Source: Euglena gracilis (Eukaryota). Taken from it: a stretch of DNA of 64,000 bases. Positions 10,701-54,200 of the stretch are shown one piece after another; within the stretch, counting starts at the first letter, position 1; the number at the start of each line of letters is the position of its first letter. The stretch is from the NCBI GenBank assembly GCA_039621445.1, contig CP154954.1:46231847-46295846 (forward strand). The letters are read 5' to 3'. A model generated the notes under the pieces. It searched no databases, was not told where the DNA came from, and worked only from the letters and a program-made list of their open reading frames with translations. A program made the translations under genes and the position numbers.

Positions 10701-13700
10701 TACCAGAAATCAGAAAAGCTGCATATTCTGCCAATTTACCCTGTCGGTTCGCCCAAAAAGTTGCAACACAATCAGCCGTGGCGATATGCCATGGCAAGAC
10801 TTACGCCATTCATCCTGAACTTGTTCATCATCCAGCGGAAGACACAACAATTCATACTTAGAAATTACCAAGGCACAAAATACGAACCTGTTTGTAGAAT
10901 GCCTATTGCTCCTTTGCCAATTGGCCGATTGGGTTTGGAAACTGAGTAAACCAACAATAAACAGCCTTTGAACGGAAATTTTCAATTTTCAAATTTCCAC
11001 TACGCACATCAGTTTCCCAGCAAAAAAACTACCCCTGCTACCCATATATTGCAAAAACTGGCTCCTACACTAGTCAAGTGTGGGGGGGGGGGCAGGAGCC
11101 AGTTTTTGCAATACTTCCAGAAAAAAAAAACGGTAAGTTCTCAATTGCATCAAAAACTGACATTTTCCAAAACAAAATGTCCTGGGCCATGTGCAATTAA
11201 TTGCACAAAATTGCAAAAAATTGCACATTTCGGGGAAAATGTGCAATTGAAAATTGCACAAAATTGCAAAAATTGCACGGTGCAATTTTGCCCCCCCTCT
11301 GCCCTTTGTCAGGTTGAGATTGACTGCAATAGGATGCCAAATGTGCGTTCAGTGGGCAAAATTTTTGACCTCGTGGGGCAACATTCCATCCAGGAATAAA
11401 CTCTATGTGCCAAAATCACATGCAAAAGGAAATGCAATTATAAAACCATATATTACAATCAGATGGAAAAACTGTGACCCAGCAATGTAATGAAAAGCCC
11501 AACACTGTGACAAAGAACGACAGCCTTAAACTGTTGGCACATTTTGGTGTACGTTAATTTTTATCTGGGGCTAAAACCTCCTTTACTTATAACCAACCAC
11601 CTCCTGACCCCCCTTGCTCCAACCAGCTAAAAGACGACCTTCGACCCCCACCCTTGGTGAAGAAAAAATAATATAAAGGTGTCCCAGAAAGTTTTTCACA
11701 AAGGTTTCTTTTTACCAAAGCATCATGTCGTTTTTGACAAATTTTGTCAAAAAATTTTGTAGGTGGTATTTTGGGTCATGTTTTGGGATTGGATTTTGAC
11801 CAACAACTCCTTGACCCCCCCCCACAGACTACCCTCCCCCCCCCCCTTCGGCCGACCAACCAAGCCAAATCACGCTTAAAAGTAGGGCTGGGGCTTACGT
11901 TCCGCTTCTGGCCGTTTGCATTTTTCTTTGGACCCCACCCCCTTGCTGCTTCGCTGCTGCATTTCCAATTCTTTCTCTGGTGAGGCTCTCTGATGAGGCC
12001 ACTGTGCACTGTGCAATGGCCTTATCGACTCACATTCCCTAATGTTGGGTCCCCCCAAAAAAATCCCACCAGAAGAAATCACGGACTACAAGCCGAGGCA
12101 AATACATCTCCTTGGCAAATTTTTCCAACATGACAGCCATACAGCCAAAAATGCCAACCACGTTGGTGTGACAATTCAGTGGGGGTTATCTGACATCATT
12201 TTAGACCAAACCTTATCAAAATTAAACCACACCATAATCCCAACTTTGAGCTGGTATTTTTTGGACCAACAAAAGGGTATAAGGTAAAATTTCCAGTGTG
12301 GTGTGCAAGTTCCTAACCCCCTCAAAAGAAAATAGAACACTAGGATAGAAATAAGACCCGGATCAACTGCAGGGGGACTCTTATTTTTGGAGGGGTCTTT
12401 GACCCTTTTCCTTGACCGACCCAGGCTAGAAAACATCATTTTTCAGGTTGTAAAAAAACACTAAGCTTTTTTTCTTTTGGCACTTCATGCCATGTGTAAA
12501 TTGGTGTAAATTGCCAGTTACCATCTTCTTTTTGCACATCAAAAATACGAAAATCTTTGAAAATGCACCATTTCCCGTCTGAGGTTCTTGGTAATTTCTT
12601 CAGGTAAAAGATTTGCCGTCCCCGGCGCTTTGCGCCGTCAGGGGAGGTCTTATTTGGGGGGTCATTTCATTTTTGAATTTTTGCTTGATTGGCCCAGGGG
12701 GTCTTATTTTGGGGGGGGTTATTTGGAGAGGGGTTGGTGCCATGTCAATGCTTGGTTGGGATTGTCAAAACCAGGCAACCGGTACAGCATGTACATCCTG
12801 AGGCCCATTTGATTGATCTGGAGATACCTGAGAATGAGTGGATATCAATGACACCAATTCCACCTCAGGTGCACGTGGGTAAAAGAAGCCCCCCAAAAGA
12901 GCCTGAAAGATCAACACACAGGAAAGAAAAAACTCCAGCAGCAGGAAATCCCCTGTGGACAACGATGGGCAACCTCCATCCTGCAACCGGGGGGGGGGGG
13001 GGGTTGTTGGTCGGGGTTCTGACCAAAAAGGTGTCCTCCAACTGGGGGTCAGCTGTTAAACAAGGGTACATTTTCAGGCCAAATCATGTAGGAAGCCATC
13101 AGGTTCCCTGGTACTGACGTATCGGGTTGTAGAGGTAGGTATTCTTTTTGCGGGTCCAGGAAACTTTCAGGGACCCCATACCAGGCAACCTGCCATTCTG
13201 TGTACTTGATCTTTGACTCTTAAAACTCATGGGATGTGCCAAAAATGCAACTTGGGGGGCACATGTGGCGACGAGATCGAAATTGGGGTTGGCTACAGCG
13301 GCCCCCTCCCTGGGATGAGGGTCTGCAAAAACTCATAACCTCCTCCCCGATGGAAGCGTGGGGCTGCTACAAGCGCAGGGTCCAAATAACAGCACACCGT
13401 TGCCAAAGGCAACGGTCCACTGCAAGTGCACCTCCATCCTGATGGGATTTCTAAAAAACATCAACAAAAATCGTGCAGGTTTTTCCAAAAAGATCCCCCC
13501 CGTAGGCGGTGGTCTACCTGCTCTAAGCGGGCACCCGTGTTTCTGTTGGGGGGTTTAGGGATGGATGTATGACACACACACACACACACAGAATACACAG
13601 AGAGAGAGAGGGGGGGGAGGGAGAGATGGGCGGGACACACCGGTGCAGGAGGTCGCAGATGAAGATGAACTCCGCCTTGTGCATGTGTCGCCACAAGACG

Positions 13701-16700
13701 GCCATCAACAGGGTCAGAGGGGGCTGAATGCCGCCCCGGGAGGTGGGCGGGGAGGGGAGGGTGGGGCGGGGCGCCAAACCCTGTGCCATCCAGGGGGGGG
13801 AGGTTCACACCCAACTGATGTGAGTCACGGGAGGGGTGGTCACGGGAGCTGCTGGTTGGACCGCGGCCGGCCGCGGCCCAACCACTACCGATTCTGAAAC
13901 CCTGAAATTTGGTTTGGTTGGGCCACAGCCACTCAACCACAACAGATCCAGCGACCCAAACCAGAACCGCATCGCACAATGCCGTGATAAATTGGCCCCA
14001 TGCGGGGTGCCAGTTATCCCAGGGCGACCCTCCCCCATATTTTTAGTTGAGCGGCACGCTTTGGGTTCGCTGAGTAGTTCTGGAAACAATTATAACGACG
14101 TTGAGCAGGAAAGGGTCAACTGTTTGCAACAATCCTCACCAAACCGTTCTTCTTCACATAACCTCACAAATTATTTTTTATGATCGCCCTTTGCAGTTTG
14201 GTTGGGGCCGCGGCTGGCTGCGGCCCCAACCAAAAAAACTTTTTGGTTGGGCTGCGGCCGGCTGTAGCCAAACCGCTTCCGATTTTCAAACCCTCAAATT
14301 TGGTTCGGTGGGCCGCGGCCGCACCTACCTCTGTGAACCCACCTCTCATGACCTCCTACCTCCACAACTTGGAGCATTTTTAAAAGCAAGGCACTTTTAC
14401 AAACATCTCCAAGGGTTAATCCACGGAGAATTCACAACTCGCAAACACACCAAAAATCCACTCTGGTTTTGGCATTCTGCTCCTCGTCAGTTGAATAGTA
14501 AAAAATGGAGAGGATGTCCGGGATGGGGGATGGGGGTGCCTTCCCCTGCGCCTGCCTTCGGCATTCTCCCCAAATTCACGGCGTTCTCACACTCTTTCCT
14601 CCCCTTTCCTGATTGGCCCGTCTTCCACGCTTGGGGCACGGCTGCCGGCCCTGCCCTCGCCGTTGCCAACGGCTGCCAACCGGGCCACCGCCGGCTGCCC
14701 CCTCTCAGGCCCTGGACAAGCCCGGCAGCGGCGGCAGGGGCGGCATGCGGAAGTTCTGCCACTTGGGGGGGAGGGCGCTGGGGATGATGTTCCCCTCGTC
14801 CACCAGGTCCTGGAACTCGACCTCCTCCGGGGCCTCCTCGTCCACCAGGCCGGGCAGCGGCTCCCAGCCCTTCTCCACGTGACAGTGGCCCCTCATCCGG
14901 TCCACACGCACGCAGAGCTCCCCCGCAAAAAGCGCCACTGCACAATTTTCTTGAGCTGGCAGTGAAATGACACAAATGCAACGGATTTGTGTGTGAGTGC
15001 ATTTGGACCATCATGTGTTTTATGTTGAACCATCTGTGCTTTGACTGCGGGCCTGCCTGTGTCTGCCCACCAGTACACGCATGTGCGTGCGTTTGACACC
15101 TTTGGAGGCAGTGCGAACACAGCTGAGGCAGCGGAAGCATCAGGTGCTGCGATGAAAGCAGCGTCCGGAGGGGCGCGACGGAGGAGAAGCCAGCCTCAGT
15201 TCCGCCCGGAGCAAGTCCCGCCGCGCCCGCCTCTCCTCCGGCGCCTTCATCATGGCCTCCGCTCGGTACAGTTCCGCCTCCGTCATCAGCCCGATGTCGT
15301 GAGTTTCAAGCGTCCAGCGCGGCTGGCGGCCATCCCCCCCCCGGGCGGATGAACACCTGGAAGTCCAGCTGCGGGGTGTGGAGTGGAAAGCACAGTGAAA
15401 GGGGAGCAGTGTTGACCCGTCCACCCAAGAGCCGTCCAGCAGCACCCGTGACCCACCCGCGCCGGCCCGGGAAACTGTCCTCTGGGCCTGTCTGTGGTGG
15501 AATTCCCTGAAAAGCGGTCATTTTCAGGCGTTGGGGTCAGAGAAACAAAAGGTTGGGCCGCCGCCCGGCCAGCTGGAGGCCGTCCGCCCCCTCCTCGACC
15601 TCCTCGTCCAGCCCGTCCTGCCCGGACACACTGAAGGGCGGGGGCGGGGGCGCCGTCGGCAACTCCACCGGCGGGGTCGGGACGGCGCGGACCGATGGGA
15701 CACCGGCCCCCAGTGTGGAGGCCCCCCCCCTGGCGTGCCCAGGGTATGAAATGAGCGGGGAGAGAGGGGGCGACCCTCCCTCCCCCCAGAAGGGGGGGGG
15801 TCGGACCACCCCCCACTCTCCCTGTGCAAAAAAATTCTGGCACAAAGCGACGGAAAATTTTGTGGACCTTGAACAAGGCCCAAGAATTGTGGTTTCGCAC
15901 GCTTTCCCCCCAAAAAATCGGTCACAACGTACACCAAATTTTCATCTTTGCCGGCGCAAAGCGCCGGAAAATGTTCTTAAGGGGTTCCCGGGGGTCCCAG
16001 AAGCGGAATGCAGCGCCAGGCTTTAAACCAGACAGAAGCCAAAGTGCAGCTAAGGGGGGTCCAGACCCCCCCCCCGGTCCGAAGGAGGAGGGGGGGGAGA
16101 GGGGTGGTTTGACCCCCTCCGCAAAACCACCGCCCACTTAATACCCTGGGTGTGCCAGTGGGACGGTTCCACTCCGAACCCTCCCGCGGGGCCACCCCGT
16201 GGTGGTGACATGGTGTCACACGGTGTCCGGATGAATGCCCCCAAACCTGACACTCGACATCTCTGCTGCTCGCCATATTTGTTAAGTTAGACCATCGATG
16301 GATGTGCACATTGCAACAGCTTTTTCACAACTGCATTGTAGATAAAGAAGCTGTGGATATTCTTATGAAGCACAAAAGACAAGCGCTGACACAGAGACAT
16401 GATTTTGCTCTTTATTTCTATTGGTCTTTTTTTTGCTTCATGGGTGATTAGTGAGGATGCAAAATTAAGCTGATGGAATATGATATTTATCTGCCTGTTC
16501 TCAGATCGAATAATTCATATGAATATTATGTTCCAATTTGCCGCCAGCTGTGCCAGTCGGTGTTGTTGTTCAATCACACTCAAGACTGCGAGCCGAGACT
16601 GGATGCAAGACATGACGGTCCCCACAAACCCGTCAAGCCCAGAGAGAAACAAACAACCACATCCTGGACCCAGCTCCCTCCTCCCGACCTTCGCGCCGGC

Positions 16701-19700
16701 CTGGGTGGCCGCTGCAATAGTTCCCGGCGCAGCAGCCGGGAGGGGTAGATTACGGCCACCTTCTTGCTGCGCCCCCTCACCACGGCGAGGTCCGGCATGC
16801 CGAGCAGGACGTCCCACCAGCTGGTGCCCAGGTAGGTCTTCAGCAGCTTGACACCCCGCCTGCGGGCACCCCCCGGCTGACCTCCGGGCCCCCGCCCGGT
16901 CGCTGTCCCCCGGGGGTGGGTCACCGCGGGAAGTGGCAAACGCGGGAGGGGCGCCTGTACACAGCCGAAGGTGCGCTGATAGATCCCCCAAGTATGCCCT
17001 CTGCCTGCAAGTGATCGACCAGGACTCACACGGCGGGACCTGGGTCTCGAACCCACGACCTCCCGCCCAGACATTCATTTAGTGTGGTTCACAAAAGACG
17101 TGTGAACCACAAATTTTTTTCTGGTGTCCACAGGTGAACCACAAATTTTTTTTGGTGTCCACAGGTGAACCACAAAAAAATTTTTGGTGTCCACAGGTGA
17201 ACCACAAAAATTTTTGTGGTGTCAGCAAAAAAATTTGTGGTCCACAAAAATTGATTGAGGATCGAAAAAAAAATTTACACCTAAAAGCGGATTGATCTTT
17301 AGACACCTCGACCACATTCTGAGCCTTGGCCCCGGCTCAATCCACGAAGCGTGGCAGTTGGAATTGGACAGATTGCTATCGAGAGTTCTCAAGCAGACAT
17401 GCTCTGTAGACAACTTACCCAACAAGGATACCATCAAAAAGTTAAGTACTGGCGTCGATGAAGCGGAATTCCGCTTCATGGAAGCAGAAACACGCGACAT
17501 TATCGTGGGGCTTTGGCATGGCTGCGGACATTGGGAACGTTCTAGGGCATTGTGGGATGTCAGTTGAGTGCCTCAGTGCCTGAAAAAGTGCCTGAAAAAT
17601 CGGCAATGCCATGTGCTTTGTTTTGAGGTAGGAGCCGGAAAGCCACTTCATTGATGTGGTGTCAGATCTTCAACTTGACCATTCAATGAAAGACCACATT
17701 CAGTATAGTTTTTCATTCAGAAGGGTAAGTGTCAGCCTCATTCTGGTTTTTGCAGTTTGGCAATATGAGATAATTAAAAAGGTATTATGTCAGCCTGAGG
17801 AAGCGGATAACCGCTTCATATTTGCTCTGTTTTTTTTGCAGGTTTTACGCCAATGTCATGTCGAAATGGCCTTCCAAGTGAAGCACGGGGAAGTGAACAG
17901 AAGGTCTGTATCGTTTCGCCTGTTCTACCTTTCGTAACTCGTGCAATTGTCTCCACGTGGTTTGACGTATTTGCATTATGCACTTTGGATAATGACATTC
18001 AATTTCTGTTCAGTTTGTCCAGTTTCTGTTATCTTCATAAATTTCATAAATGTTAACGTTCTTCGTTGTTATTGGGATTGGAATATCGTTTGGTGATCAT
18101 TGTTGATCATTTCAATTCATACCATTTTTTTACGGATTCTTTCAAAGCGGTTTTACGCTTCCTTTTTGGTGTGCAAACATTATGCATATTTTTTTTACAT
18201 TACATTCTGTATAATTCATTGCGTTGCACATCTCCTGCTTTTGAAGCGGAATGCAATATTTACCGCTTCCATTTTTTATTTTTTCTGTTTCGTTCCTTCG
18301 GGGCCTACGGCAGCAGAAACAACGCTTGTTTTTGTCGGTTCCTCCTGTTCATGTATTTCTTGATTGGTTTTGTTGATTTTACCAGAATTCGAAAGTAAGT
18401 TGGCCTTCTTAGGTCTGCTTTCAACTGTATAGGTCTCCTTTACTGTGAGCCAAACGTCCACCGGAATTGGCCAAAATCAGAACCTCTTCAAAAAAAATCG
18501 AAAAATATGACCCTTTTTTGGAAGTGGTTTTCCGCTTCCTCTTCTGTTTTTAGAGCACCAGAATTGTAGGCCAACTTACGCCGCCTGAGTCAAACATGTT
18601 CACAGAAGATTGCTTCCTTGCTGTTGATGAGAAAGAAAATGATGCAAATGTCAGCAGGCGGTGGGAATTTTTTGGTGTCCACATGTGAACCACAAATATT
18701 ACTTTGGTGTCCACAGGTGAACCACAAAAAAATTTTTGGTGTCCACAAGTGAACCACAAAAATTTTTTTGGTGTCCACAGGTGAACCACAAAAATTTTTG
18801 TGGTGTCCACAGTGAACCACAAAATGACAACCTTGGTGTACCACACTAAATGAATGTCTGCTCCCGCCTGTGAGGCCAACACCTTAGCCGAATAAGCTAT
18901 CCGGGCGATACTCGCTTTGGTGTTATGCACCTACCACTGTAGTGCGTTGTAGGCTCTCCCGTCTGCCGCACACGGCGCCGCAGTCCACTGTGACTGGCTG
19001 CAGTGCCACCGCCCATGATCCCACCTCCCGCAACAACCTCAGCCCGGTCCTCCGCACACACACGGGTGCCCTGCTCTTCCTTGGGCTGAGGCAATTTTCT
19101 TCCGACCAAATTTGCTTGCATGACGGGAGACCAGCCATAGCCATTTTTTTTTGTGCCGGTGGATTGTCGAGCCATAGGCGGTGGTGCGCCGGAAGCTGGC
19201 CAACATGGGTGGACAGAGCCTGCTTTCGAACATTGTCACATTACCACATACTCACATACCAGCCCCCCCCCCCACACCTTTTCCATGTTGAGAATTGAGG
19301 AAGGCAAAGACCAAAACCTGCATCAATGTAAAGAACATCACCCTGGAGGCAGGTCAGCGCCATAAACTTGGTGACCCTGGGGGAGAGGTTTGGGTACTTT
19401 TCCCCTAGGCCAAAACCCACCCAGGGGGGCTCGTGGGCTTGTGGGTGGGTTACCAATCCCCTCGGCCAGCCCAAAACCACTGGGAATCCACCAAAAATCC
19501 TTAAACTCTTTCTGCCCAACCCGGCTCTGGCCAGGTTGGGCACACCTGGCCAACGCCGGGGATGAAAGAACTTAAGGTTTTTTGGCTGATTTCTGGGCAT
19601 CCCGGGGGGTGGTGGGCTCCACTGGTCCCAAGCCACCCACCAACCAACCAACCCTTGTCATTGACACGCCAATGTTCCAGGAAAGTTGACACAGGGGGGG

Positions 19701-22700
19701 GGGTGTCAAAGACATGCTGTGTCAAAGACAGGGGGGCACGTACTCTCTAAACCCCCTCAGCACCTTCAAGAGTAACCCCCCAAAATAGACTCGGGGGGGG
19801 GGGCTATTTTTCTGGTCTGTTGGTGGAAACCTTAAGGGTCTTTTTTGACCTTTTTCTGGGAAACCGTCGATTCTTGGGGTCCCAAAAACATGGAAAATCC
19901 TTTATTTTGCATGATTTTTGGGTCTCAAAAAAACCCGTCAAATATCAGCAATTGTTGTGCCTTAAATTGGGGTTTTCAATAATTTTAAGAGAAGTGTTTT
20001 ATGGAGCTTTGTGTGGTCTGGGGGGCCTTAACCCAATTTTTGGATTTTTTCTCATTCAGCCCGGGGGTGTCTTGTTTGGGGGGGGGAACTCTGGTTGCGC
20101 TCCAGTTGTTCGTGGTATGCGGGGGGGGGGGATGCGGGGTGGGTAAATCCTGGGGCCTCCAGCCCGGGGGTGGACGGTGTACAGCCCGGACATGAGGCCG
20201 AACCGGATCAGCCGGATGCCGTCCGGGTTCGCCACGATGCAGTCCCGCACGATCTGGCGCAGCTCCAGGAACCGCGGCTGCAGGCGGGGCCGCTGGCCGG
20301 GCTTGAGGGTGCTGCGGCCCGGCCGCCTCAGGAGCTCCTTCCGGAACACCGCCCAGTGGGGCACCGGAGGGATGGGCCAGCATCTGGCAGTCTGGGGGCC
20401 GAGAAATGAAACAGGCAGGTGGAGAGAGGGGCTGGCCACAATGAAGCAGCATCTCAATGTCATGATGTATCAATACCTAAAATACACACACATGTCATGA
20501 TATTGCATTGATGTACCTGTGTCTAAATCGTACACACACACACACACACATATACATACATATATATGTATGTGTGTATATACATATATTATATATATAC
20601 CACCCCCCAAATAACCTTGGACCTCCCAGGGGCCGCCTCTGGCCCTCGGGGGATGCTGCGGCATCGGCAGGATGGAGCTGCCTTGCAGCTTTTCGAAGAG
20701 GTGGGCCGGGAAGAAGGTTGGCCCCCGGCGAGGCGCTTCCTGAATTTGTCAGCCCCGCAGTTCACCCCCGCTGTGGAAAAGCTCAACCCGCATCTTGTGC
20801 AAGGCACACTGCAGTGCACAAAAGCTAACCTCAAAATAACACCATCCCAGCACGGCACACATTTTGTTAGGTCTTCAGAGTGGAAATGTCCCCTCCCCAA
20901 CTGGTGGTAGGAAAAATTGGATGCTGCCTGCATGCGGACTACAGGTCCACATGTGGACTACAGGTGCACTGGAAATCGCCAAATCCCCCCCCCCTATTTA
21001 ACAGGTCACTTCGCTAGTTTTGTCCCCTAGAGAACTAGAGTCAATATAATTGCAGTCCTAGGTCAACCGTAGCAGTTCCTTGGTTTCTTTTTATTGCTTA
21101 TTTAATGAGTTTTTCATTCAAAAAATAAAAATCTGGACTGCCACTTTCACACTATGCTAAGCTCCAAACATTGTAAGACGTTAAAAAAATGACAATGCAA
21201 AAAAAATGGTGCACTCCTTCACACAGAACAAGATGGCATGCGACCAATGAGCGCAAAATCCCACACCCTCCATTCCAGGAGTTCTGAGTTGCGAGAGACA
21301 GCGGCCGGTGGAAAGAAAACCAATGGCTGGCTGCCCCCACCCCTCCGTGCTCGACCGCCTTCCCCTTGAGAACCGCCTCGGCCCCCTGAACAGCCCCACG
21401 TCCGACAGCTCGAAGTCCCGCAATACCTCGTCCGGGATGCGGAGCCGCCCCCTCGGGACGAACTCCAGCGGGAACGCCGCCGCCGGGCCGGCCTCCAGGG
21501 GTCAGGGGCCGGGCGCCGAGTCAAACCATTGCACGCCGGGCTGCTTTGTAAAACCCTCTCGCAGGGGGGAAAGAAACGGACTCCCCCAGTTCGCAACCCT
21601 GCAAAGAAAAAACACGGGGTCACATCAGTGAAATGCACCATCCATTTCCAATGCCAGTGCAACGTCAAATGTCAAATGCCAAATGTCAATGCTAAATTAA
21701 ATAATTCAATTCAATCAATTCAATTTCATTAATTCAACTATGGTGTGGCAGGGTCAAATATTAATGGTGTGTGTGTATGTGCGTGTGTGCGCGCGCATGT
21801 CCCTGTGTGTGGGGGGGGGGAGGGTATGCACAGAGGGGGGTTTGCGCAGGGGTGGATGGTGGTCGATCAGCTGGGCCCCTTGCCACCTCACCTGTGTGTC
21901 AATCTCTTGGTAGGAGGAGATCCTGACTTAGTTTTGTGTTGGGGGTGCAAAAAAAAAAAGTTCTGCACCGCCAAAAAAAAAATGCTTCAGGCAAGCCAAG
22001 TTACGGCAGAGAGGACAGCCGCAACGCCTCCTTCGCAAAGGCAAAATGCAACGCATTGCCGGCAACAGCGGCTCGCGGCGACCCACCGCCGGCCCCGACC
22101 CTGGTGGGGGGGGGGGGAGGCTGGCCCGGGCGGGGCGAACACCCAGTTGGAGGGCAGCAGCGACTTCCGCTTGTCCTTGATGACGATGAGGTCCGGCATC
22201 GAGAAGAGCAGCGCCCAGACCGACTGCCCGCTGAGGCGCCCAGTCGCCCAGGGCCGCTTTGGCGGCTTGCATGGCCACCGGAGAAGTGTTGAAAGCGTTG
22301 GGGGGCCGATGTCCGGAAACTGGGGGAACAACAACATCGAAACCGCCTTTCCATCCCTGGAACCCACCAACCAGGACCTAAAACCCCCTTGCTGTTGGAA
22401 TGTGCATGAACTTATGGGGATGCCCACCCCGCAGTGCCGGCACTGCGTGGCACTGCGTGGCACCGCGTGGCACTGCGGGCCGTTTAACCCGTATGCAAGC
22501 ACCTTCAATGATGTGGCGCTATGTAGGCATTTTTATGGTCATTGTTCGACATTTCTAGCCAGATGTGGTCAAATTGGCCCAAAAAGGCACAAAACAACCA
22601 GAATTGCCCTTGATGGCCCGAAAATTCCAATGATGCAAAAATTGGGTTTAACGGCCCGCAGTGCCACGCAGTGCCACGCAGTGCCACACGCAGTGCCGCA

Positions 22701-25700
22701 CGCAGTGCCACGCAGTGCCGGCACTGCGGGGTGGGCATCCCCTATGAGTGAGAGGAAACCCCCTGCAGAGGGATACCCAATCCCACCCCCAATGTCAATG
22801 TTTAACTTATTGGGTGACATTAAAACTGTGCTGTGCCAATGTTTGTCTCTTCTTTCTTTACCCCCCCCCTTCCACGACCACTGATTTTTGCCTCCGATTG
22901 GGGGGGTCATTTTCAGGCAAAGGATGTGGGGGTGCATGGCCATTTTTGGCCGTTTTTTTTGGCCATTTTTGGGGCAACTTTTAGCCGTTTGCTGTAGCCT
23001 TACACACACTTTCATAAACTTTAATCCCTTGGGATAATTTGTAATCATTTTGGGGACTATTGGCCTTATTTGCGACTTTTTTTTGCAACCATTTTCTGGA
23101 GTTAATCCCAACGAATTACAAAACTTTTCAGCAACGTGCAAATAATGCAAAAAAGGCGAAATTAACCATCGTATACAAAAAATTCATGACTGGGGGTCGT
23201 TGGACAAGGGGGGAAAAACACAAGAAAAATTGCCAAATCCTCGCTGAACATTTTTGTGAATTGTGAATTGTGAACAGACTTCTCCTTGAAGAGATTCGCA
23301 AAAAGAAAAAACACTGGTATTTCAGCTGGCAAATTCCTTTTTTCTGTCACATGATCCAAAGCATGCAGAAGCATGCTTTCGGCACATGATCAACAAAAAC
23401 ACAATGAAAAATACACACCGGCACTGTGACGGTGGCAGGTGTGCAAATCCACAGAAAAAGCATAAACACCCCCATGTCCAACTCCATCCATGTCCCAGGA
23501 TATCACCACTGTCCAAAGGGGCCATTTCCATCTCTGGGGCAAAATACTCAAAAAAAAATGGGGAGCAGAAGCAGACAGGAGAAAAATGAGAAAATGGAGG
23601 AACAGGAATGTTGCAACAGGAAGCACATGCCAAAAACCTATGGGCATAAACCCTTGTTTTTCCATTCTTCTGAAAATCAGAAAAAAGGGGGGAAATGGAC
23701 ATTTTGGGGACCACGCAAAACATTCATTGGATGCAAAATCACGTGAGAACATTGAAAATCAGCTCAGGTGAAAAGGCTGTTGAGGGGAAGCAACCAAAAG
23801 CGTTCAGGTTCCTTTCCCTGCCAACAGGTTGACCGCCTCAGGCTGGAACCCCAGGCGCTGCATCCGGTTCCGCTGCACGCCTCCTCCAAACCTTCGAACG
23901 GCCGTAAGGGACCGGCCGGGGATGAGGCCTGCCCTGGGCACCCGCTGATGCCCCTGGTGGACAGCCAGGAACACACACATTATGCACGAGCAGGGTGGAG
24001 GGCGCACAGAGAGGCCGCAATGGGGAAGAGCCACGTGCAAGCCCCAGCAGGGGTTTTTTTTTTAAGACGGCCCCCCGGGGGGTCGGGGGACCCACTTTGG
24101 GGGGATTTTCGACACCGCGAAATGTGAACGCGGCAAAGCAAACGCGCCAATCAAAAAACTCATCGAAAATTGCTAACCCCCCCTCCTAATAGAAGCATGG
24201 GTGCGCTTATAGGGGACCGCCGCCTCCGGTGGCGGGGGGTGCGCTTCTATTCTCTACTTGCGCGGTTTTTGTTGATTTCCTTTAGAAATCCCATCAAAAT
24301 GGGGGTGCACTTGTAGCGGACCGCCGCCTTCGGCGGTGGGGGGGTGCGCTTTTATTTGGACCCTGCGCTTGTAGCGGCCCCATGATTCTATAAGGGGGGG
24401 GGGTTACAGCAATTGTCTGTTCAATGCAAACTGAGGGGTATACAATGGTCAATCAGACTCCGCCCACTTGGACATTGTGGCTGTGACAAGAGGCGCGACA
24501 AAGAAATTGCAAAAATTTCGGCGCTTTCGGCGTCGGTCAAAAAAAAAAAATCCGACGCCTTCGGCGCCGGGCACCTACCAGCCAAAAAAGGTACCCCCCC
24601 GGGGGGGGGGGGGGGACGGCCAGACCCGCCCATCCTACCTGCCCCCGGGGTCCAAAGCTAAAAAAAAGAACCCCTGGCCCCCAAGCCAAGGATGACGCGC
24701 ACGGGGGCAAAACACCACTTGGCCCCAATCTTGGCTTTCCTGCTTCAATTTCATGTCGTCTGGGCGTCCGGCTGATTCCTTGTTCTACCCCACGAATGGT
24801 CTCTGCCCCTTTCCGGGCCATGACCCTGACTTGAGCACCGGCATGTGAAATGCCACTATTACCCTTCAGTGATGTCCACCTTTTTCGGCGCCAGGTGTTA
24901 AGGTTTGAATTATTTTCGAGGTGCTTCTCAATGCAACCATGGGCTGGAAATACAGGGGGAAAATAACGGGAAACAAAAAATACAACAAACCATCCCAATT
25001 TTCCCACACACCCCCTGTAATTTGTCCACTGAACCTTTCCTGGCCCTTTGGGAGAGCCAATCTTACCGGCAGGAGTAGCCAAAACTCACAGACAAAAAGA
25101 CAGTTGTGAAATATTTTTGGCGTTTATTTTGTAATGAAAAATCACAAAAAAGCCCAAGAGAAGACCATTTCGACCATTCTTTGGAATTTCAGGCTGCCTT
25201 TTTACAAAAAAAATGCATTACAAATGAGAAAAAATTATACATTCCTTCCCCTGAAATAAAAACGACCATTCCTCTGAAACGTCGAAATTCCCTCCGGACT
25301 TTCCCAACCTGTAATTTTCATCTCTCGAATTTGGAACACAGTGCATCAATTTTCTGCAAATTTTTCAGGTGGTCAACATAGGGGGGAGGGGGTTTATTGG
25401 GGGGGGGTTGACTCCGCAATGTTCTTCAGCCAATTGTGAGGGGGAAGAATAGGGCACATGTTAATTGCTTTGATCTGTTCCTGAACCTGGGGTTTTCCCC
25501 TTGCGCCGTGCAAGGCAGGAAACTCGCATGTTAGGAACGATCAACAAAGCCCTCTGTGACCTCCCCGCTGTTTAATAAGGAATTTTTCAATGTGCCAAGA
25601 CAATAATTTCTGACACAAAAAAGTAGCTTCTGGAAAACAGGGACTGGGGGATCTCCCAGCCAAGATAGGGTGACCCCTTGACAGCGTGCGATTCCAGCCA

Positions 25701-27415
25701 AAGCCCGGCTACGCACGATCTTCAGCCGATTGCGAAGGAACGTTCGGTGTCAGGAGGAGCCACAAGCACACCCACCACCTCTTGGATGTGCACCAACCGA
25801 TCCACAATGCCGTCAATGCAGGGTTCGATATAAAGACAGGTGGGGGGGTGGTCCGGACAACCCCTGCGGGCGAGGAGGGGGGGGGTGGGGGGACACCCCC
25901 CCCCACCTAAAGAGGTGCGCGGTCTGGGTGACCGAATTTCAGCCCGGCGCGAAGCGCTGGGCCGAAAATTTTTGACCCCCCAAAACGACCAAAAGTGCCA
26001 TTTGGGACACTTTTTGGGCAAAAATGTGCCAAAAATGCAAAAAAATTTCGGCGCAAAGCGCCGGAGGAAAAAATTGACCCTTTTGGGGGGGGTCCCGGAT
26101 ACCCCCCCCCAGGGTCGGTCCGGACCCCCTGGCAGGTGGGGGAGTGGTCCGGACCCCCCCTGCGGGCCAGGGGGGGGGGGGACACCCCCCACCTAAACCA
26201 TGTACGCCCTCCTTATATCAAACCCTGCGTCAATGTCGTCAACACACGCACCAGCCACCCGAGCGCATGAAAGCCCAGACACATTTGTTCGTCTGTCAAC
26301 AGGGCCAACACCATGTGCACGCATTTTGAGAAATCATGCAAAAGAAACGACCCTCGGACATAGAATTTGGTGCGTCTGAGAGAACGGTCCAGAGGAGTCG
26401 GAAGCGTGGCCGCAGCTGTGCGGAAGTCATTGTAGTCCTTCCACATCAGGGCGTCCCATTTGCTGCGGTCGACGTCCGGGGAATAGTTCGCCTTGCGTGC
26501 CAGCAGCTTCTCATACTTCGGGGAACTTCTTTCTGGGGAAGTGGACCTGTCGCCAAGTGAGGAGAAAGGCGGTGCCGACGACGGCTGAACATGCACTCGC
26601 CCTGAGGCCAAGCCGCCAAGAGAGAGGATCACAAGGGTGTTTGTTTGACTGATGGGATCTCCCAATTTCCTCCCGCGTGGAGGCACTGACAGACACAGAT
26701 CCGGCAGCACTGGAGGGAAAATGAACGTTCAGCACCCCGCTCCGGAAAATGTCCTTATTCGGGTACACAAAAACCACACCCAAACGAGAACGTTGGAGGG
26801 GTTAACAACAATTCTGGTACACCACTCCCTCTTCTCCTTCGTGAGCCAAATTGAAGGAAAAAAAACAAAATTCAAAAAAAAAGAAATAGACGTTGGTGTT
26901 GGAGGGGTCCACTTTCCAGAGGGTCGAAGGACAGGCGGGTCCTCGTCCCACGGGATGGGATCCAGCCACGCAGGCTATGCCTCACTGTGTCGGACGTCCC
27001 TCCTCGCTATCTGCGGCCCCACAGGCAGCGTATGCCTGTGACCCATCCATCCACGGACGCCACTGAGCCAGCACCTCTCAGGCCACCCCCATCAGTGGTG
27101 GCCATCAGTGGTGGGCTGCTGCTTCGTGGGGCCACTCCACACCCCTCCCACGCCTTTTCTCAAGGGACGACGTTTGGGCTTTCGTGGCTTTCATGGTTTG
27201 TTGTGCTTGGTCGGGGGGAGTGTGGGAGGGGCGGGAGGGCCTCCCTCCGGAGGCACCGCCTGGCCCAGGGGTCTCGTTTCCCCAGCCGGGCCGCTAACTC
27301 GGGGCCCCACTCTGGCTGCCACATGCCGGGGTCCTTGGCGCCAGGCCGACCACAGCGAGACAGGGAGAGCAGGGGAAGTGCCAGCACACACACGGACGTG
27401 CGAGTACACACGCGC

Positions 27416-27470
<55 letters not shown>

Positions 27471-30400
27471 GAGCAGTATATTTCACATAGAAAATCACAC
27501 ACGCGCGCACACACGGTGCATTATGTCTCACAAAGTACATATCACGCACACGCACACACACACACACTGCAATACCTCGCCCCTTGTCTTAGCATTGGAA
27601 AATATCGGCAAGCATGGGGGGGGTGCTAAATTTGTGATAATATCGACTAGGTGCTTAGACAGAGGGGGATGATGACGCAAAAAAAACATATGGGGCTTCG
27701 GGTCAAGAACAATTTTCCTTAATTTTTTGGTGTCAACTGCTTGACTTGAAGGCACGTGGGCAAAAAAAATCAACAATATCAACCTTCGGATTTGCTGAAT
27801 ATCGTAATCATCAAGCACCGCGTTCTTAGACAACCCTGGTGCTTGGACAAAGGGGGTACATCACACATCGCACATGCGTGCATACACAAATTTGAGCCAT
27901 TTGGCGTGAATGGCGTCTGGCAATATACCACCATCCATCCAAGCCCGGGTTTCACAATGGACGGCAGGGGGGCCTGGGTGTACACCTCTGCCGTTGTCTC
28001 CTCATACCAGCTGACGGGGTCGCCAATCTCAGGGCCTTCCTTATTCCAATTGGTTCTCTTCAGAAGCAGTTTCTTCTCGGAAGGTTCAAACCAAACATTG
28101 CATTTATTAACCCTACCTAGCGTGCCTGTCTGCATCTATGGGGAGAAATGACAGAGGGGACTAACACCTCCCCCCAAGGGTGCTCCCCATTGACAAAAAA
28201 ATTGGCACAAAGGGGCAGAAAAATTTAATGGTTAAAAAATCACCCGCGGTTTTGCACTTTCTTTTTTAAAAAGGGAGTATGTGTGAACATATGTATGCAA
28301 AAAATTCCCTTGCGATTCGCGCCGAGGAAGCAAAAAAAATTCCCTTCTGGTTCTTTGAGGGGGGGGTTGATCCCTGGGCAGGGGGGGGTCGCTGACCTCC
28401 TCCAACCTGTCGTCAATGACTGGGGATTGCAGAGAGGTAAGGATGGAACAATGTTCGTACCGAAGGCATAGGCACTGTCTTGTTCGAACTTGCATACTTG
28501 TGTAACTCATCGTAATTCTTTGAAAATCACCAGAAATCATCTGAAAATACCAAAAAAAATCCAAATTGTCTTCCCAGATTGAACCAATTTTCTGATCCAT
28601 TACACAAGGACCAGATGCAAAAGACACACAATCAGGAGTTCGGTAACCAAAAAGGTACATGATTCTGGAATTCGGCAAGTGCAAGGCAAACAAAAACAAA
28701 AAATATTTCTGAGTTTCAGCCGTCTAAGGAATGCGATTCAAACAGTGGCCTGACGTCGAGCCCACACACATCAAATGGTTATAAGCAAAGGCCCCGCCTC
28801 CAAGCCTCCTCGGCCTCCTCATATTGGTCGAGGAGGACCTCCTCTCCCTCCCAAAGCTTGGCCGGCGCTTCGGCCTCCCCCTCCCAACCCTCTGGGGGCG
28901 CTTCGCACTCCGCGAGGGAGGGCGCCGCGTCCGGCGGCATCGCACCCCCCGGCGGTGCGGCGGCGGCGGCGGAAGGGGCTGCGGAGGGGCAGTGGGCGGG
29001 CACGGCGGGGTTGGGGGGTGCAGCGCTACCCTGCGCTGGCCAGTGCCGCAAGCCAGCCCCTTTGGCCCGAAACGAGGCGTGCGTTGCGTTTCGGATGTGT
29101 CCCGGTGTGGCGTGGGCAGTCCGCCGGCGGCCCACCGGGGAGTCCCCCAGCAGAGGGTTGAGCGATGGAAAACATGGCAATGATGGGGAACACAGGGGAA
29201 GGACAGTTGGTGCTTGCGAGCCTCCCTGTGTTGGGAAATTGGCGCAAATGCGAACAGAAAAGGACGGTCAACTCTGTCCAACTCAGCTCAGTGTGGGTGG
29301 GGTTTATGATCAGCCAGGGGGGGGGTCAATTGAGCCAGCAGCTTTTCCCAGCCCCGGACCACTCCCATCCCATCGCCGGATTAATTCTGGTCTGGCAGTC
29401 CAATAGACTGCTGGATGGTTAGACAGGTGAAGAATTTTCTTTGCCTTCGACGGTGCAGAAGAGGGCCAATCGATTGGGCAAAATGGGTCGAAATGCACTG
29501 GACAACAATTTCCTCATTTTCCAAAGGTTTTCCAGCATCTGAACTGGACCACCCGGGTCGTACACCCCCCCCCCAAATATAAAGCCCCCGGGCTTTAAAG
29601 TTGGACGAGATTTCAAAACCCTCAGGGGGGGCTCTATATTTGGGGGGGGGGCTGAAAATTTGGGGGGAAATCCAAACTTTTTTGGGTGGCCTCTATGACC
29701 TTCGGCGGTCTTCAATTGCGGCCAAATACCAATTTTATGCCGACTTTTCGCTGTTTGCCTGCTATTTTTCGCAAAAATGTGCAATTCTTATCCAAAATGG
29801 AGCATTTCTGGACCCCCCCCCAGAGCCAAAGTTGTGGACGGGATTTCAAAACCCACTTGGGGGCTGGGGGAAATCCAAACTTTTTTGGGTGGCCTCTCAA
29901 TTTTTCCCAAACATTTTTTTTATGCCTTTTTTGTGCTGCTATTTTTTATGTGCAATTCTTATTGGCATTTCTTTCCTCGCCTCCGCGGGGACAAGACCCT
30001 GGGCTTGCCCTCAATCCCCCCAAATCCTGCACCTGGGTGTTTTCCTGCTGTTTGACCTCAGCTTCACACTCCCAGGGACCCACAACTTTCTGGCAGGCCG
30101 GTTTTTTTTCCAGCTGGCAACCTCTTCACAACACATTCCACAGAGCTCGAAAGGGCTAAATTTCACCCAGCCTGAAGACAGTCGGGACTTGCAACGGGGG
30201 GTTTCAGCCCATGTTTGGAAAATTCATATCTGCCGGAGTTGAAACCCAGGGTTTTGAAGTTTTTTTTTAAAACCTTGTGTGTAGCCCTAAAAAAAAAAAC
30301 ACAAAAATTGGGCCTTCCGTGGGTCCCAACATCGGCAACTGATGCAGGTCCCAATGTTGACAATCTCGTTGGGACTGTAAGGGTCAAAGGGTCAAAAGGG

Positions 30401-51200: not shown

Positions 51201-54200
51201 AAACAGGTGCGCGGTCAGGGTGGCCGAATTTTCGGCCCGGCGCGAAGCGCCGGGCCGAAAATTTTTGACCCCCCAAAACGACCAAAAGTGCCATTTTGGG
51301 CACTTTTTGGGCAAAAATGTGCCAAAAATGCAAAAAATTTTCGGCGCAAAGCGCCGGAGGAAAAAATTGACCCTTTTGGGGGGGGGTTAATTTTTGCCCC
51401 CGAGGGTCGGTCCGGACCCCCCTTGCAGGTGGGGGGGGGGGGGGGGGCCCGGACCCCCCCCTGCGGGCCAGGAGGGGAGGGGGGGTGGGGGGGGGACACC
51501 CCCCCCCACCTAAACCATGTACGCCCTCCTTATATCGAACCCTGCCTGGGGGGTATTATTTAGGAGGGGGGTTGCTCTTATTTGGCAAATTCGACCCAAA
51601 AATGGGTTGAACCTATGTGAACAACATCAAAATACATGGCAGGCGCAATTCTTTAGAAACAGGCAATTTGATATTCCCTTCCATTTCATTTGGAACGTGG
51701 CCATGTAAAATTTGCGCAAAAAATAGGTCCAACTCTCAAGAAACACATTTTTCCCATCACGGCGGTCAGTGAGGAAATCGGGGGGTGGGGGATATTATAT
51801 AGGCGGCTGAAGTCGGATCCAAGAGGGAAAATTATTTGGGATTGTTGGGGGAGGAGGAAAATAAACTGGAAGGGGTTTTATTTTTGGGGGGGTTAAATAG
51901 CAGCCCATTCGAGGGTCCCAGGAGGATCTGAAATGGGAGTCCCACTTGTGCAGACCCTTCGTGCGGGTGTATGGATTCGTCGCGTTTCACCACAAACATA
52001 GCACCACAATGGCGAAGGGGTGCCCCCTACTGTCCCTTCAACTGTTTCGAATTGCAAAGTCCCTTGTCTTCTGGATGATGGGCTGATCTTCTTCATCAAT
52101 TTTTTTCAGAAGGCCAGTAGGATTACGGTTGGGATTCACATTCTGGTTTTGGACATTTGAAGGCTAAATTTAGGCCCTTTCTACCCCAATTATTTTTCTA
52201 ATATTAAGCCTAATTTTGGTACAAAACACCAAACACTTCCTCCTTTAACCGTAAACCTGGTCAGAAACCAAAATGAATTCCAGCTGAAGCTCGAACAACA
52301 TCAAACACACTCAGCACACACTGCATGCCCGAGAAATCCTGGGAAGGGGGGTCCACCCCCCCCCGGCCATCCACCGGGGCACGGGGCGGCACCGCCGGGA
52401 TGTCCATGCCCTCCAGCCTCTCGAAGATGTCCGCGTTGAAGAAGCTCGGCCCCTCGAACAGCTCCGTGTCCGACAGCTCGAAGTCCCGCAGCAGCTCCGC
52501 CGGGATGGGCAGCCGGGGCGGCGGCAGGTGCTCCGGGGCGACCGGCGAGGGCGGCGCGGCATCTCAAAAAGGCTGCGGTGGGCAGCGTTTGGGGTCCCGG
52601 GGGATGGGGCGGCGGGGGGGGGGGGGGGCAGGGAGTGGGGCATACTGGAGAGGCAGGAACGCCTGCAGGTGACAGGGGGATGGGAACGGGAACTGCAAGG
52701 AAGAATGGGGGTCGGGAGGAGATGGGTGCTACATCCCCCCCTTTGTCCTTGAAAAGCCAAAATACGGGGAAAGTGCGGTTGACACGGGGGTTGATGGACC
52801 GGGGGGGGGGGGGGGGGGCCCTCGCAGACGTTTTACTGATTTATTGACCCAAATGGGCGGGGAGCGGTTGTGTTTCTTTTGGTCATGGCGTTTGGACGTT
52901 CTGCACAATTTTGGGAACGTCTGCTTTTCCAAATGTCACCATAAAAGTTTTGTTCCACAGCTTTCGACGCCTGGCATCTTCCTGCTCTTTCCTTGTGTGG
53001 GCAAAGATTTGGGTGCCCGCGCATTCGGGGGGACGATGCCACTCCGATGGGGACAAAAACCCAGTTGAGCGGCAGCAGCGATGACTGCTTGTCCTTGATG
53101 ATGATCAGGTCGGGCATGGAGAAGAGCAGGCCCCAGAAGGACTACTCCCTGAGGTGGGTCCTCTGACCCCGGTGTCGGGTGGCCTTTGCACTGCAAAATT
53201 GGGGTTAGATGCCCCCACAGCTTCAATGTCTGCCTCCCTCTGCTAAGCCCCTTTCGTGGACTAAAAAAGGATGAAACTCGTGCCATGAGAACGCTCCTCT
53301 TTCTTCTTGGGTGTCCAAACTCGCATTTAAGCTTTTTTCCTTTGTCGGTGTGCACAAATGCACACATCGACAATTTTTACGAAAGTGACAACAGCTGGCT
53401 CTCGAAACCCAAACTATGTGATCATGATGTGCTGTAGTGCCCCAGGACGCAGAGATGGAAACAGGGACTTTGACAGTTGGGGCCCACCGTTGGGGCCTAA
53501 GAGCAGGTGTCACCACAGCATACGGGGTACATAACACACAGGACGTCAGTCTGGAACCTTCGAACACAACTGCCTCATCAAAGTGGGATGTTAATACCCC
53601 CTCCCTAATAGAAGCGCGGGCGCGCTTCTATTTGGACCCTGCCTGTGCGATTTTTTTGCTGATCTCCTTTAATGCTGATCTCCATCAAAATGGGGGTGCG
53701 CTTGTAGTGGACCGCCGCCTTCAACAGCAGAGGGTGCGCTGTTATTTAGACCCTGCGCTTGCAGCGGCCCCACGCTTCTATTCGGGGGGGGGGGGCGGAT
53801 TTAGTGGAACGATTTAGGACAGATGAGATTAAGTCTGAAACGATGCTCTGAACTTTCAACTTTGCAAAAATTTGGTTTGAAAAACCTCAAGTTCGAGATA
53901 TTTTTGTAGAATTTAATGACAGCTAAAAGATCAGCCTTCTAGGGCCTGAAACTGGGCATTGGCAGTTGGGTTGGTGCGCGCAATTGTGCAAATGAACCAT
54001 TCTAATGGCTGATGTGCGCATTGACACCCACCCACCGAAACTTTGTTTCATTATTCTGAAGCCTCAATAACGGGGGATTCTGAGACAAGAGAAGGGTGGA
54101 AACAGGAGGAGAGCAACATATGGAGCGTTGTGTTCAAATTGGAGGTGTTGTGAGGAGTGTTTGAGAGGGTCAAATGAAGTGTGTCAGGGAACGACATTAT

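Follow-up and report, generated by a model that had tools for sequence, protein, structure and literature searches.

A 660-nt intron that interrupts one of two tandem gene copies in Euglena gracilis is cut exactly from the mRNA, leaving a single copy of a flanking 8-mer and an intact reading frame, and it probably arose when a 652-nt insert entered this copy after the tandem duplication. The host gene, which lies on the minus strand of the 64-kb stretch of DNA analyzed here (the window), is a nuclear gene of E. gracilis whose protein product carries weak OST-HTH/LOTUS-like repeats. Copy B contains the intron, termed i9, whereas copy A lacks it at the same codon (Table 1).

Table 1. Coordinates of intron i9, its flanking repeat and helix arms, the adjacent exons, and the corresponding site in paralog A
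Feature	Position in window	Strand	Remarks
NC intron i9, gene B	20724..21383	-	register with 3-nt 5' spacer and 5-nt 3' spacer
Exon 9, gene B	21384..21477	-	joint 21477>22131 in X15, X16, and X21; tblastn of P0001
Exon 10, gene B (-GPTFFPAHLFEKLQGSSIL)	20668..20723	-	100% to P0001 residues 241-260
Inserted body, 652 nt	20729..21380	-	bounded by outermost helix base pair
5' helix arm, sense CGAGGCGGTTC	21370..21380	-	begins at intron +4; 7 contiguous pairs from +4/-6
3' helix arm, sense GAAGCGCCTCG	20729..20739	-	ends at intron -6
Upstream 8-nt copy, sense CAGGGGGC	21381..21388	-	5 bases exonic, 3 form the 5' spacer
Downstream 8-nt copy, sense CCGGGGGC	20721..20728	-	5 form the 3' spacer, 3 open the next exon
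Empty site in paralog A, sense C GAG GGG C	52449..52456	-	inside continuous exon ~52399-52533

Removal of i9 from the transcript is evident from a database protein and from RNA contigs. The E. gracilis transcript protein P0001 (eukprot:EG_transcript_4749) runs uninterrupted over the site as …SDVGLFRGPTFFPAHLFEKLQGSSILVPHW…, i.e., …LFRGPTFF…, and the translation of copy B with its exons joined reads …GLFRGPTFFPAHLFEKLQG…. When placed on the window by tblastn, P0001 matches 21483-21388 at 96.9% and 20727-20668 at 100%, with the match at residue 241 (R) extending to 20727. Judged by depth, RNA contigs cover the flanking exons alone and leave the body of i9 without coverage. Specifically, the depths in bins 20538-21004 and 21005-21471 are 22.7 and 40.1 for contig set X15 (contig depth 203.6) and 4.25 and 7.52 for set X16 (contig depth 38.2). 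By simple arithmetic, these are the values expected if one contig covers about 52 bases of the first bin and about 92 of the second, which fits 20668-20719 plus 21380-21471. Sets X15 and X16, whose records carry no RNA label, are presumed to be RNA, and one raw RNA run was also used. The joint across i9 is not among the joints listed, beyond which there are 170 more, and the RNA support for this junction therefore consists of depth together with the database protein. The next intron of gene B, following exon 10, occupies 20365-20667. Exon 8 of the same gene measures 93 nt.

The same mRNA is produced by seven further registers of i9, from 20720-21379 to 20727-21386, as found by a scripted slide through the 7 nt shared at the junction. 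None of the eight equivalent registers has GT-AG or GC-AG borders, and 19 of the 20 mapped introns of gene B are likewise not of the GT-AG type. A preliminary description of this DNA had proposed a nonconventional (NC) intron of 660 nt specific to copy B, and this proposal holds, given that the intron is spliced according to P0001 and RNA contig depth, lacks conventional borders in every register, and is absent from copy A. We conclude that i9 is a genuine NC euglenid intron.

The published splicing code for such introns is 5'-N3CDG…CH'GN5-6|R (Nomura et al. 2025, PMC12501133), and its geometry of 3 nt, 5 nt, and a purine was defined experimentally (PMC12501133). Intron i9 resembles the euglenid NC introns described there and by Milanowski et al. 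2014 (PMC3935182) in its lack of GT-AG borders, its helix at +4/-6, its spacers of 3 and 5 nt, the purine, the slidable junction, and the precise removal. Its ends are arranged as GGC|helix…helix|CCGGG, and the exon that follows starts with G, a purine. In contrast, its first triplet pair is CGA/UCG, not CAG/CUG, CGG/CCG, or CGG/CUG as reported for those introns (PMC12501133). With CGA/TCG at these positions, no register of i9 fits the strict code of CDG at +4..+6 and CH'G at -8..-6, the letter pattern of which is matched by 10 of the 20 introns of gene B. Because i9 lacks the strict signature, we class it with those NC introns of E. agilis, 38.8% of the total, that fall outside this signature (PMC12501133).

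The two ends of the 652-nt body form an inverted repeat. Its 11-nt arms, CGAGGCGCTTC (20729-20739) and GAACCGCCTCG (21370-21380), are complementary at 10 of 11 positions (91%). A terminal Watson–Crick helix of at least 10 pairs with at most one mismatch has a chance of 0.0015, as estimated from 4,000 random pseudo-introns. This helix is part of the minimum-free-energy fold of i9 and is absent from the centroid, and the fold of the intron as a whole is not more stable than those of shuffled sequences (z = 0.36). Between GC-rich ends, the body has an AT-rich center (30% GC at 21100-21199) and a single 19-nt tandem duplication at 20931-20969. Its five internal ORFs (40-58 aa) have no Pfam matches. 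Likewise, Rfam yields no match inside i9, and all 15 weak sub-threshold matches lie outside it, in low-complexity repeats at 20460-20600 and ~21684-21800.

Directly beside the helix lies a direct repeat. GGCCCCC (sense GGGGGCC) is present at 20720-20726 and at 21380-21386, at a spacing of 660 nt, just as the preliminary description had it for the two junctions. When 200,000 pairs of positions separated by 660 nt were drawn at random from the window, a fraction of 0.0009 shared a junction repeat of at least 7 nt. The same description had put the inverted repeat directly inside this direct repeat; the complementary arms are real, but the 5' arm has one base in common with the repeat and CC intervenes at the 3' arm. 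If the 8-mers immediately adjacent to the helix are considered instead, CAGGGGGC and CCGGGGGC are identical at 7 of 8 positions, and identity of at least 7/8 arises in 0.35% of random trials (P = 0.0035). The single mismatch is synonymous (Arg AGG vs. Arg CGG), with the downstream copy read in frame as CGG GGG C.

One possibility, which we regard as highly unlikely, is that this geometry is a mere requirement of NC splicing and is silent on origin, with the helix held by selection and the repeat reflecting coincidence or the sliding of the junction. The helix is indeed functionally required, and a junction repeat of some length is present in 84.4% of E. agilis introns (PMC12501133). Within gene B, the best 8-mer identity is at least 5/8 in 7 of the 20 introns, compared with 5.5% in the null, and similarity at the junctions is therefore general. 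However, the spacers are free to vary, so this explanation leaves the 7/8 identity of the helix-adjacent 8-mers unaccounted for. Moreover, the junction repeats of the other 19 mapped introns of the gene are only 0-3 nt long in 18 cases and 7 nt long in one. In the 11 introns whose helix lies at +4/-6, the 8-mer identities are 1, 2, 5, 3, 5, 7, 2, 0, 3, 6, and 5 of 8, a sample so small that the excess cannot be localized.

Comparison with paralog A reveals a single empty site in a continuous exon, in agreement with the earlier claim that unit A is continuous where B is split. Specifically, segments 21377-21447 and 20647-20725 of B correspond to 52445-52515 and 52375-52453 of A, respectively, and the two overlap by 9 nt when placed on A. 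Introns i6, i9, and i17 are found only in B, whereas no intron specific to A was seen in the well-aligned exons, and thus all three presence/absence differences point the same way. Introns i7, i8, i10, and i11 are retained in A. The divergence between the copies is moderate, with pS of 0.37 and dS of about 0.51 over 228 codons.

Outgroup loci were also sought. A search of representative sequences returned eight hits. The homologues P0002 and P0006 cover the i9 region on contigs of 2.2-5.9 kb, and P0008 spans just residues 524-661. We take the contigs of P0002 and P0006 to be transcript-like, and they therefore carry no intron information. No transcript of paralog A was found, and P0005 and P0007 resemble genomic ORFs of unit A that run into introns. 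A metagenome scan with P0001 gave no relatives among 57 pattern matches.

The pattern in A also fits a different history, albeit one that we consider rather unlikely, wherein the intron is ancestral, having been present together with its repeat before A and B were duplicated, and A lost it precisely, via cDNA recombination or by deletion between the repeats. Copy A also lacks i6 and i17 and shows no intron of its own in the well-aligned exons, so A may shed introns. An 8-nt flanking repeat would be a good substrate for exact deletion, and with a dS of only about 0.51, a 7/8 repeat could persist from just before the duplication. We roughly estimate that about one quarter of introns acquired not long before the duplication would have retained 7/8 identity. 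However, the three absent introns are non-adjacent, with i7, i8, i10, and i11 kept in A, and one cDNA-mediated event therefore does not account for them. Furthermore, those parts of the repeat that lie within the intron are unconstrained spacers (PMC12501133), and yet the 8-mers of i9 match at 7/8, compared with just 3/8 for the other two B-only introns, i6 and i17. Published comparisons also point away from loss, as they describe frequent NC-intron gains and young NC positions (PMC3935182). For tubulin genes, 15 gains of NC introns were inferred and NC positions were species-specific (PMC3935182).

We therefore favor a gain in B as the probable history, with a polarity that is read from the state of the repeat and from published rates, not from a tree. 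A precedent is intron 4 of the gapC gene in E. agilis ACOI 323, a newly gained NC intron whose 8-nt junction repeat exceeds those of older introns in length (Milanowski et al. 2016, PMC4770533). As described there, that intron is like i9 in being present in one lineage or copy and absent from close relatives, and in having an 8-nt direct repeat. The polarity of gapC intron 4 is known from strains lacking it (PMC4770533), whereas that of i9 is deduced between old paralogs.

The window also contains MITEs. Five elements in it have an exact 8-bp flanking duplication together with terminal inverted repeats of at least 11/12, compared with none in 20 shuffles and none when duplications of 7 or 9 bp were sought. 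This agrees with the preliminary description, in which 8-bp-TSD MITEs were said to be abundant here. Three of the five have CAG…CTG ends. Like these MITEs (e.g., 25819-26227 and 51103-51544), i9 is a short non-coding insert with terminal inverted repeats and an 8-nt duplication. It differs in that the MITEs reach DNA depths of about 10^5 to 8x10^5, compared with about 80 for single-copy sequence, have CAG/CAT…CTG/ATG ends, and are flanked by exact duplications, whereas i9 is single-copy and has CGA…TCG ends (CGAGGCG…) and a 7/8 duplication. We presume from their 8-bp TSDs and CA(G/T) ends that the resident MITEs are hAT-like.

A blastn search with a word size of 7 found no second copy of i9 in the 64-kb window, the hits being exon matches to unit A and others with E of at least 0.58. 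The terminal motif of i9, with one mismatch allowed, occurs five times in the window vs. 2.99 expected and is not enriched, since 19 of 100 shuffles reach five. In DNA run X1, the depth over i9 is 70.5 and 96.0, that beside it is 73.1 and 75.5, and that over a MITE is 820,760. The single-copy call rests on this DNA-run depth, which covers copies of at least about 95% identity, and at single-copy depth i9 therefore does not belong to any repeat family that is active or was so recently. Of the hallmarks of a MITE, i9 has the terminal inverted repeats (10/11), the small size, and the lack of coding capacity, whereas related copies are evident neither in the window nor in the DNA-run depth. Its 8-nt duplication equals those of the five MITEs in length but is a single case with one mismatch. 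It belongs to no MITE family recognizable in the window.

Similar considerations apply to introner elements (Micromonas, dinoflagellates, and others) and to the intron gains of Daphnia, which share with i9 a target-site-like flanking repeat, with or without inverted ends (PMC11282704, PMC4770533). Introners are defined by numerous similar copies and depend on the spliceosome for their removal (PMC11282704, PMC4770533), whereas i9 has no copies in the window and has non-spliceosomal borders. Members of an introner family would share sequence across different genes, but beyond its ends i9 is not similar to any of the other 19 mapped introns. The ends shared by i9 and i7 (start …GCC(T)GAGGCGGT, end GCGCCTC(A)G…) were evaluated as a possible family and rejected, because this pair ranks second of 190 with a score of 18, compared with 19 for the first and 17 for eight others, and so is no outlier.

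A gain in B could also have occurred by double-strand-break repair with filler DNA and without a transposase, in which case the repeat would derive from fill-in or microhomology and the helix would have arisen by chance or later. This route, to which we assign a low probability, was the one favored by the authors of the gapC study for the E. agilis intron with 8-nt repeats (PMC4770533). In its favor, the body of i9 is single-copy in the DNA run and without a relative in the window, and its ends are unlike those of the resident MITEs. What this route explains poorly is a 10/11 inverted repeat that coincides precisely with the insert ends and adjoins the duplication (P about 0.0015), which moreover would be needed at once for splicing. 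Break repair also predicts no fixed length, yet the duplication has the length of those at the five MITEs in the window and at the published new intron.

Within the favored gain in B, integration of the transposase type appears somewhat more plausible than break repair with filler DNA. Birth of the intron from a transposon-like insertion, as first proposed from the sequence, thus receives partial support. The geometry is non-random (0.0015 for the helix), and the duplication is 8 nt long, as in the MITEs, with 7/8 identity. However, the window holds no second copy, the depth is that of a single copy, and the CGA/TCG ends are foreign to the resident elements. In addition, NC splicing needs a terminal inverted repeat, and selection would maintain it however the intron arose, so the inverted repeat is weak evidence for a transposon.

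We propose that a staggered 8-bp break occurred in copy B after the A/B tandem duplication, and that an insert entered and the gaps were filled in. This would have duplicated the coding target C[A/C]GGGGGC around an insert whose first 11 nt could pair with its last 11 nt. Going by published NC splicing rules, the terminal helix would then bring both intron ends together, and the transcript would be cut 3 nt upstream and 5 nt downstream of the helix, before a purine. Such cuts would remove the insert plus 3 + 5 = 8 nt, which amounts to one copy of the duplication.

More speculatively, the NC splicing code may mirror, at the RNA level, one class of DNA insertion, such that splicing would be a host system for precisely undoing 8-bp-TSD, hAT-like insertions in transcripts. 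We put this idea forward tentatively, as possible though doubtful. Together with its exact 8-bp duplication, a MITE with CAG…CTG ends reads N3-CAG…CTG-N5 by construction, and cuts 3 nt ahead of the helix and 5 nt past it take out the element along with exactly one copy of the duplication. On this view, a new NC intron would initially carry an 8-nt repeat that erodes as the intron ages, and both i9 (7/8) and the gapC intron of E. agilis (8 nt) would count as young. Intron i9 itself would then derive from a family of elements whose ends are CGA…TCG and which has since become scarce. A transposon or MITE origin of NC introns is already in print (PMC3935182, PMC11282704, PMC12501133). Our literature search, which covered article texts, found nothing that connects the 3 + 5 spacers with an 8-bp duplication or with hAT elements.

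Intron i9 bears on both the origin and the excision of euglenid NC introns. It adds a new example to what has already been published, namely a proposed MITE origin (2014) and a newly gained NC intron with an 8-nt repeat (2016), and taken alone it confirms the current view and changes nothing in it. Because it combines a near-intact 8-nt target duplication, an empty sister site, and a transcript that shows exact removal, i9 constitutes a clean natural test case. It also represents an intron with a CGA/UCG first triplet that is spliced in vivo, beyond the strict published code. Finally, the arithmetic by which 3 + 5 spacer bases equal an 8-bp duplication would connect the rule for splicing with a type of transposon residing in the same genome.

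The window holds eukaryotic sequence with two tandem paralogs, gene A and gene B. The transcript protein P0001 (eukprot:EG_transcript_4749; 719 aa), which we take from its source name to be an E. gracilis protein, aligns with the successive exons of gene B. Identity is 92-100% in most tblastn pieces and drops lower where a piece overruns an exon end. An OST-HTH/LOTUS profile scores 18.8 bits on P0001, below the cut-off of 23.8, which is passed by two distant homologs. Across 228 aligned codons, the two paralogs have diverged to a pS of 0.37, a dS of ~0.51, and a dN of ~0.29.

Features of the two-gene locus (window coordinates, plus-strand numbering)
Feature	Position	Strand	Defining evidence	Ends
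Gene B	~28931 down to ~1356	minus	tblastn with P0001	
Gene A	~58847 down to at least 43174	minus	tblastn with P0001	
652-nt insert of gene B	20729-21380 (plus-strand numbering)	minus (gene B)	ends set by the outermost pair of the helix	
MITE family, two copies	25819-26227 and 51103-51544		exact 8-bp TSDs CGTCAATG; CCTGGGGG	CAGGGTTCGATA… (alignment)
Element	17068-18860		exact 8-bp duplication, inverted ends at least 11/12	starts CAG or CAT
Element	4401-4866		exact 8-bp duplication, inverted ends at least 11/12; 94.7% copy at 9845-10312	starts CAG or CAT
Element	9742-10553		exact 8-bp duplication, inverted ends at least 11/12	starts CAG or CAT

The 660-nt intron i9 of gene B lies where gene A has a single continuous exon (~52399-52533), to which both halves of B align with an overlap of 9 nt. 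The sense strand reads …CTG TTC AGG GGG CC/GAGGCGGTTC … GAAGCGCCTCGCC/GGGGGCC AAC CTT…, with slashes at the junctions. The preliminary description had reported the uninterrupted A unit, a GGGGGCC repeat at both junctions of B, and an inverted repeat inside them, and these observations are confirmed. The two copies of the 7-nt repeat (20720-20726 and 21380-21386) are spaced by 660 nt, and the arms of the inverted repeat (21370-21380 and 20729-20739) are 10/11 complementary. Junction repeats of at least 7 nt occur at a frequency of 0.0009 among random position pairs of the window, and terminal Watson–Crick helices as good as this one at 0.0015 in a null drawn from the window.

When the insert is bounded by the helix, its flanking 8-mers, CAGGGGGC upstream and CCGGGGGC downstream, are identical at 7/8 positions (null probability of at least 7/8, maximized over slide, 0.0035). 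The exact 7-nt repeat consists of six bases of this 8-nt duplication plus one coincidental C. The sole mismatch falls in an Arg codon, which is AGG on the exon side and, in frame, CGG on the intron side, and the tblastn match at R241 of P0001 extends into the intron-side copy. The two copies would differ in this way after a single synonymous substitution on the exon side. The intron contains no ORF matching Pfam and no Rfam match, and its full-length fold is no better than those of shuffled sequences. A CA/TA microsatellite occupies 20525-20600 in the neighboring intron i10, and sub-threshold Rfam microRNA-family matches there were rejected as low-complexity artefacts of it.

Splicing was assessed by mapping two presumed-RNA contig sets (X15 and X16), a raw RNA-seq run (X21), and a DNA run (X1) onto positions 14000-28000. 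Among the intron joints of gene B that were listed, at least 10 recur in X15, X16, and X21, with 5-21 read starts per joint in X21, and all have a depth of 0 in X1. For i9, the RNA support comes from per-bin depth and from P0001, which reads without a break over the site. In X15, the mRNA contig has a depth of 203.6, and bins 20538-21004 and 21005-21471 have depths of 22.7 and 40.1, corresponding to 52 and 92 covered bases. The same values emerge from X16 (contig depth 38.2; bins 4.25 and 7.52). These bases are 20668-20719 and 21380-21471. The bin depths fix the position of the junction; a shift by one base would predict 51 and 93. The intron is spliced. The preliminary description had allowed for a different junction in cDNA; P0001 and the bin depths instead give the 660-nt skip in an equivalent register. 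If the intron were retained, the frame from exon 9 would reach a stop at ~21152.

Twenty introns were mapped in gene B, of which read joints defined 11 and the protein nine. In 19 there is no GT/GC-AG register, i16 (12828-13640) being the sole GT-AG-readable intron, and the letters of 10 of these introns fit the published code for euglenid nonconventional (NC) introns, 5'-N3CDG…CH'GN5-6/R (PMC12501133). Outside this set, the solution for i18, between 9517 and 7153, carries eight mismatches and gives the P0001 residues DRKTP no place on the genome; this intron probably hides a micro-exon. Elsewhere in the gene, RNA joints support a micro-exon of 34 nt at 25711-25744.

None of the eight equivalent registers of i9 matches the NC letters. 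However, in register 20724-21383, the one originally proposed, a helix of seven contiguous pairs runs from +4 to -6, flanked by a GGC spacer (3 nt) and a CCGGG spacer (5 nt), with a G beginning the next exon. Therefore, the intron has the geometry of the NC code, with CGA/UCG replacing CDG/CH'G. According to PMC12501133, 38.8% of NC introns in E. agilis lie outside the strict signature. Cleavage at the outer edges of the 3-nt and 5-nt spacers would remove the insert together with exactly one 8-mer.

A structural scan of the window for an exact k-bp flanking repeat with inverted termini that pair at 11/12 or more yielded 20 matches at k = 8, and none at k = 7 or 9 or in 20 shuffles. Two palindromic or tandem repeat regions, 34745-36367 (TGCGCGCA…) and 22438-22720 (GCACTGCG…), are a source of many false matches of this kind. 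Their exclusion leaves five elements, all within long introns, three of them (17068-18860, 4401-4866, and 9742-10553) within those of gene B; among these three, one appears to be nested in another. In the DNA run, bins of the five elements reach depths of 10^5 to 8x10^5, compared to ~70-130 in single-copy bins, and thus the earlier remark that 8-bp-TSD MITEs abound here was right. We take their 8-bp TSDs and CA(G/T) ends to be hAT-like. Three of the five have CAG…CTG ends, so that element plus duplication satisfies the NC code by construction. This includes the two-copy family (N3-CAG…CTG-N5/purine), which has terminal inverted repeats of 18-19 nt (CAGGGTTCGATATAAGGA…) and a depth of ~820,000 versus ~80 for single-copy sequence. 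A partial copy of this family lies at 60765-61075.

The same scar arises from two routes, a transposase-type 8-bp staggered cut or break repair with filler DNA. The first is favored by the duplication length, which is the same in the resident MITEs and in a new intron described in PMC4770533, and by the inverted repeat exactly at the ends of the insert. However, such a repeat is expected whatever the origin, because NC splicing itself needs it (PMC12501133). Break repair, which the authors of that 2016 paper (PMC4770533) put forward, is favored by a single-copy body and by ends that differ from those of the MITEs. Specifically, the body has no relatives in the 64-kb window, its DNA-run depths are 70.5 and 96.0 versus 73.1 and 75.5 in neighboring bins (copies under ~95% identity would escape this measure), and it lacks CA(G/T) termini. 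These features speak against i9 being a MITE, as do its lack of Pfam and Rfam matches and its unremarkable overall fold. The similarity of its ends to those of i7 is no outlier and was not taken as a sign of a common family. The transposon-like origin proposed initially is partly supported.

Three nonadjacent introns of B are absent from A: i9, i6 (23930-25710; A continuous at 56585-56712), and i17 (~9603-12759; A continuous at 44064-43918, spanned by the ORF P0007). No A-only introns were seen among well-aligned exons. The flanking 8-mers of i6 and i17 are each 3/8 identical. A young insert is argued by the 7/8 identity at i9, since the parts of the duplication that lie in the intron are spacers free of constraint. 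At the A/B divergence, though, a rough estimate has 7/8 surviving in about one in four introns that arose shortly before the gene duplication. The published record also favors gain: PMC3935182 describes 15 NC-intron gains at species-specific positions in tubulin genes, and PMC4770533 a new gapC intron of the NC type, specific to one E. agilis strain, with an 8-nt junction repeat that is longer than those of older introns. We lean toward gain of i9 in gene B, and consider an ancestral intron lost from A rather unlikely.

The 5' end of i7 (22224-23842), an intron shared by both paralogs, is conserved, with CAG then CCTGAGGCGG in B and CAA then CCTGAGGGG in A (~56575-56590), indicating that intron termini can outlast paralog duplication while bodies are not alignable. 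Intron i19 (2210-6999) is of the NC type, spans 4790 nt, and has TGCCCAC (7 nt) repeated at its junctions. It reads CAG…CTG in the N3/N5 register with flanking 8-mers 6/8 identical, and is a candidate second, relatively young insertion-type intron. P0008, a 224-aa homolog of P0001 residues 524-661 that does not reach the i9 site, comes from another assembly, where its contig is 554 kb long. It is one continuous ORF over the positions of i17-i19, for which it may be a useful outgroup.

A MITE origin of NC introns was hypothesized in PMC3935182 and again in PMC4770533, PMC11282704, PMC12501133, and PMC12621601. TSD-like junction repeats (PMC11282704) and "slidable" introns (84.4%; PMC12501133) are likewise published, as is the 8-nt repeat at the new gapC intron (PMC4770533). 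Intron i9 is a well-documented further example of a known phenomenon, and no new kind. A search of the main texts of a limited set of papers found none that explicitly ties the 3 + 5 spacers to an 8-bp duplication and to CAG…CTG MITEs such as those residing here. Intron i9 offers a clean, testable case of this phenomenon, and the CAG…CTG MITEs that fit the NC code together with their duplication are a side lead of wider interest.
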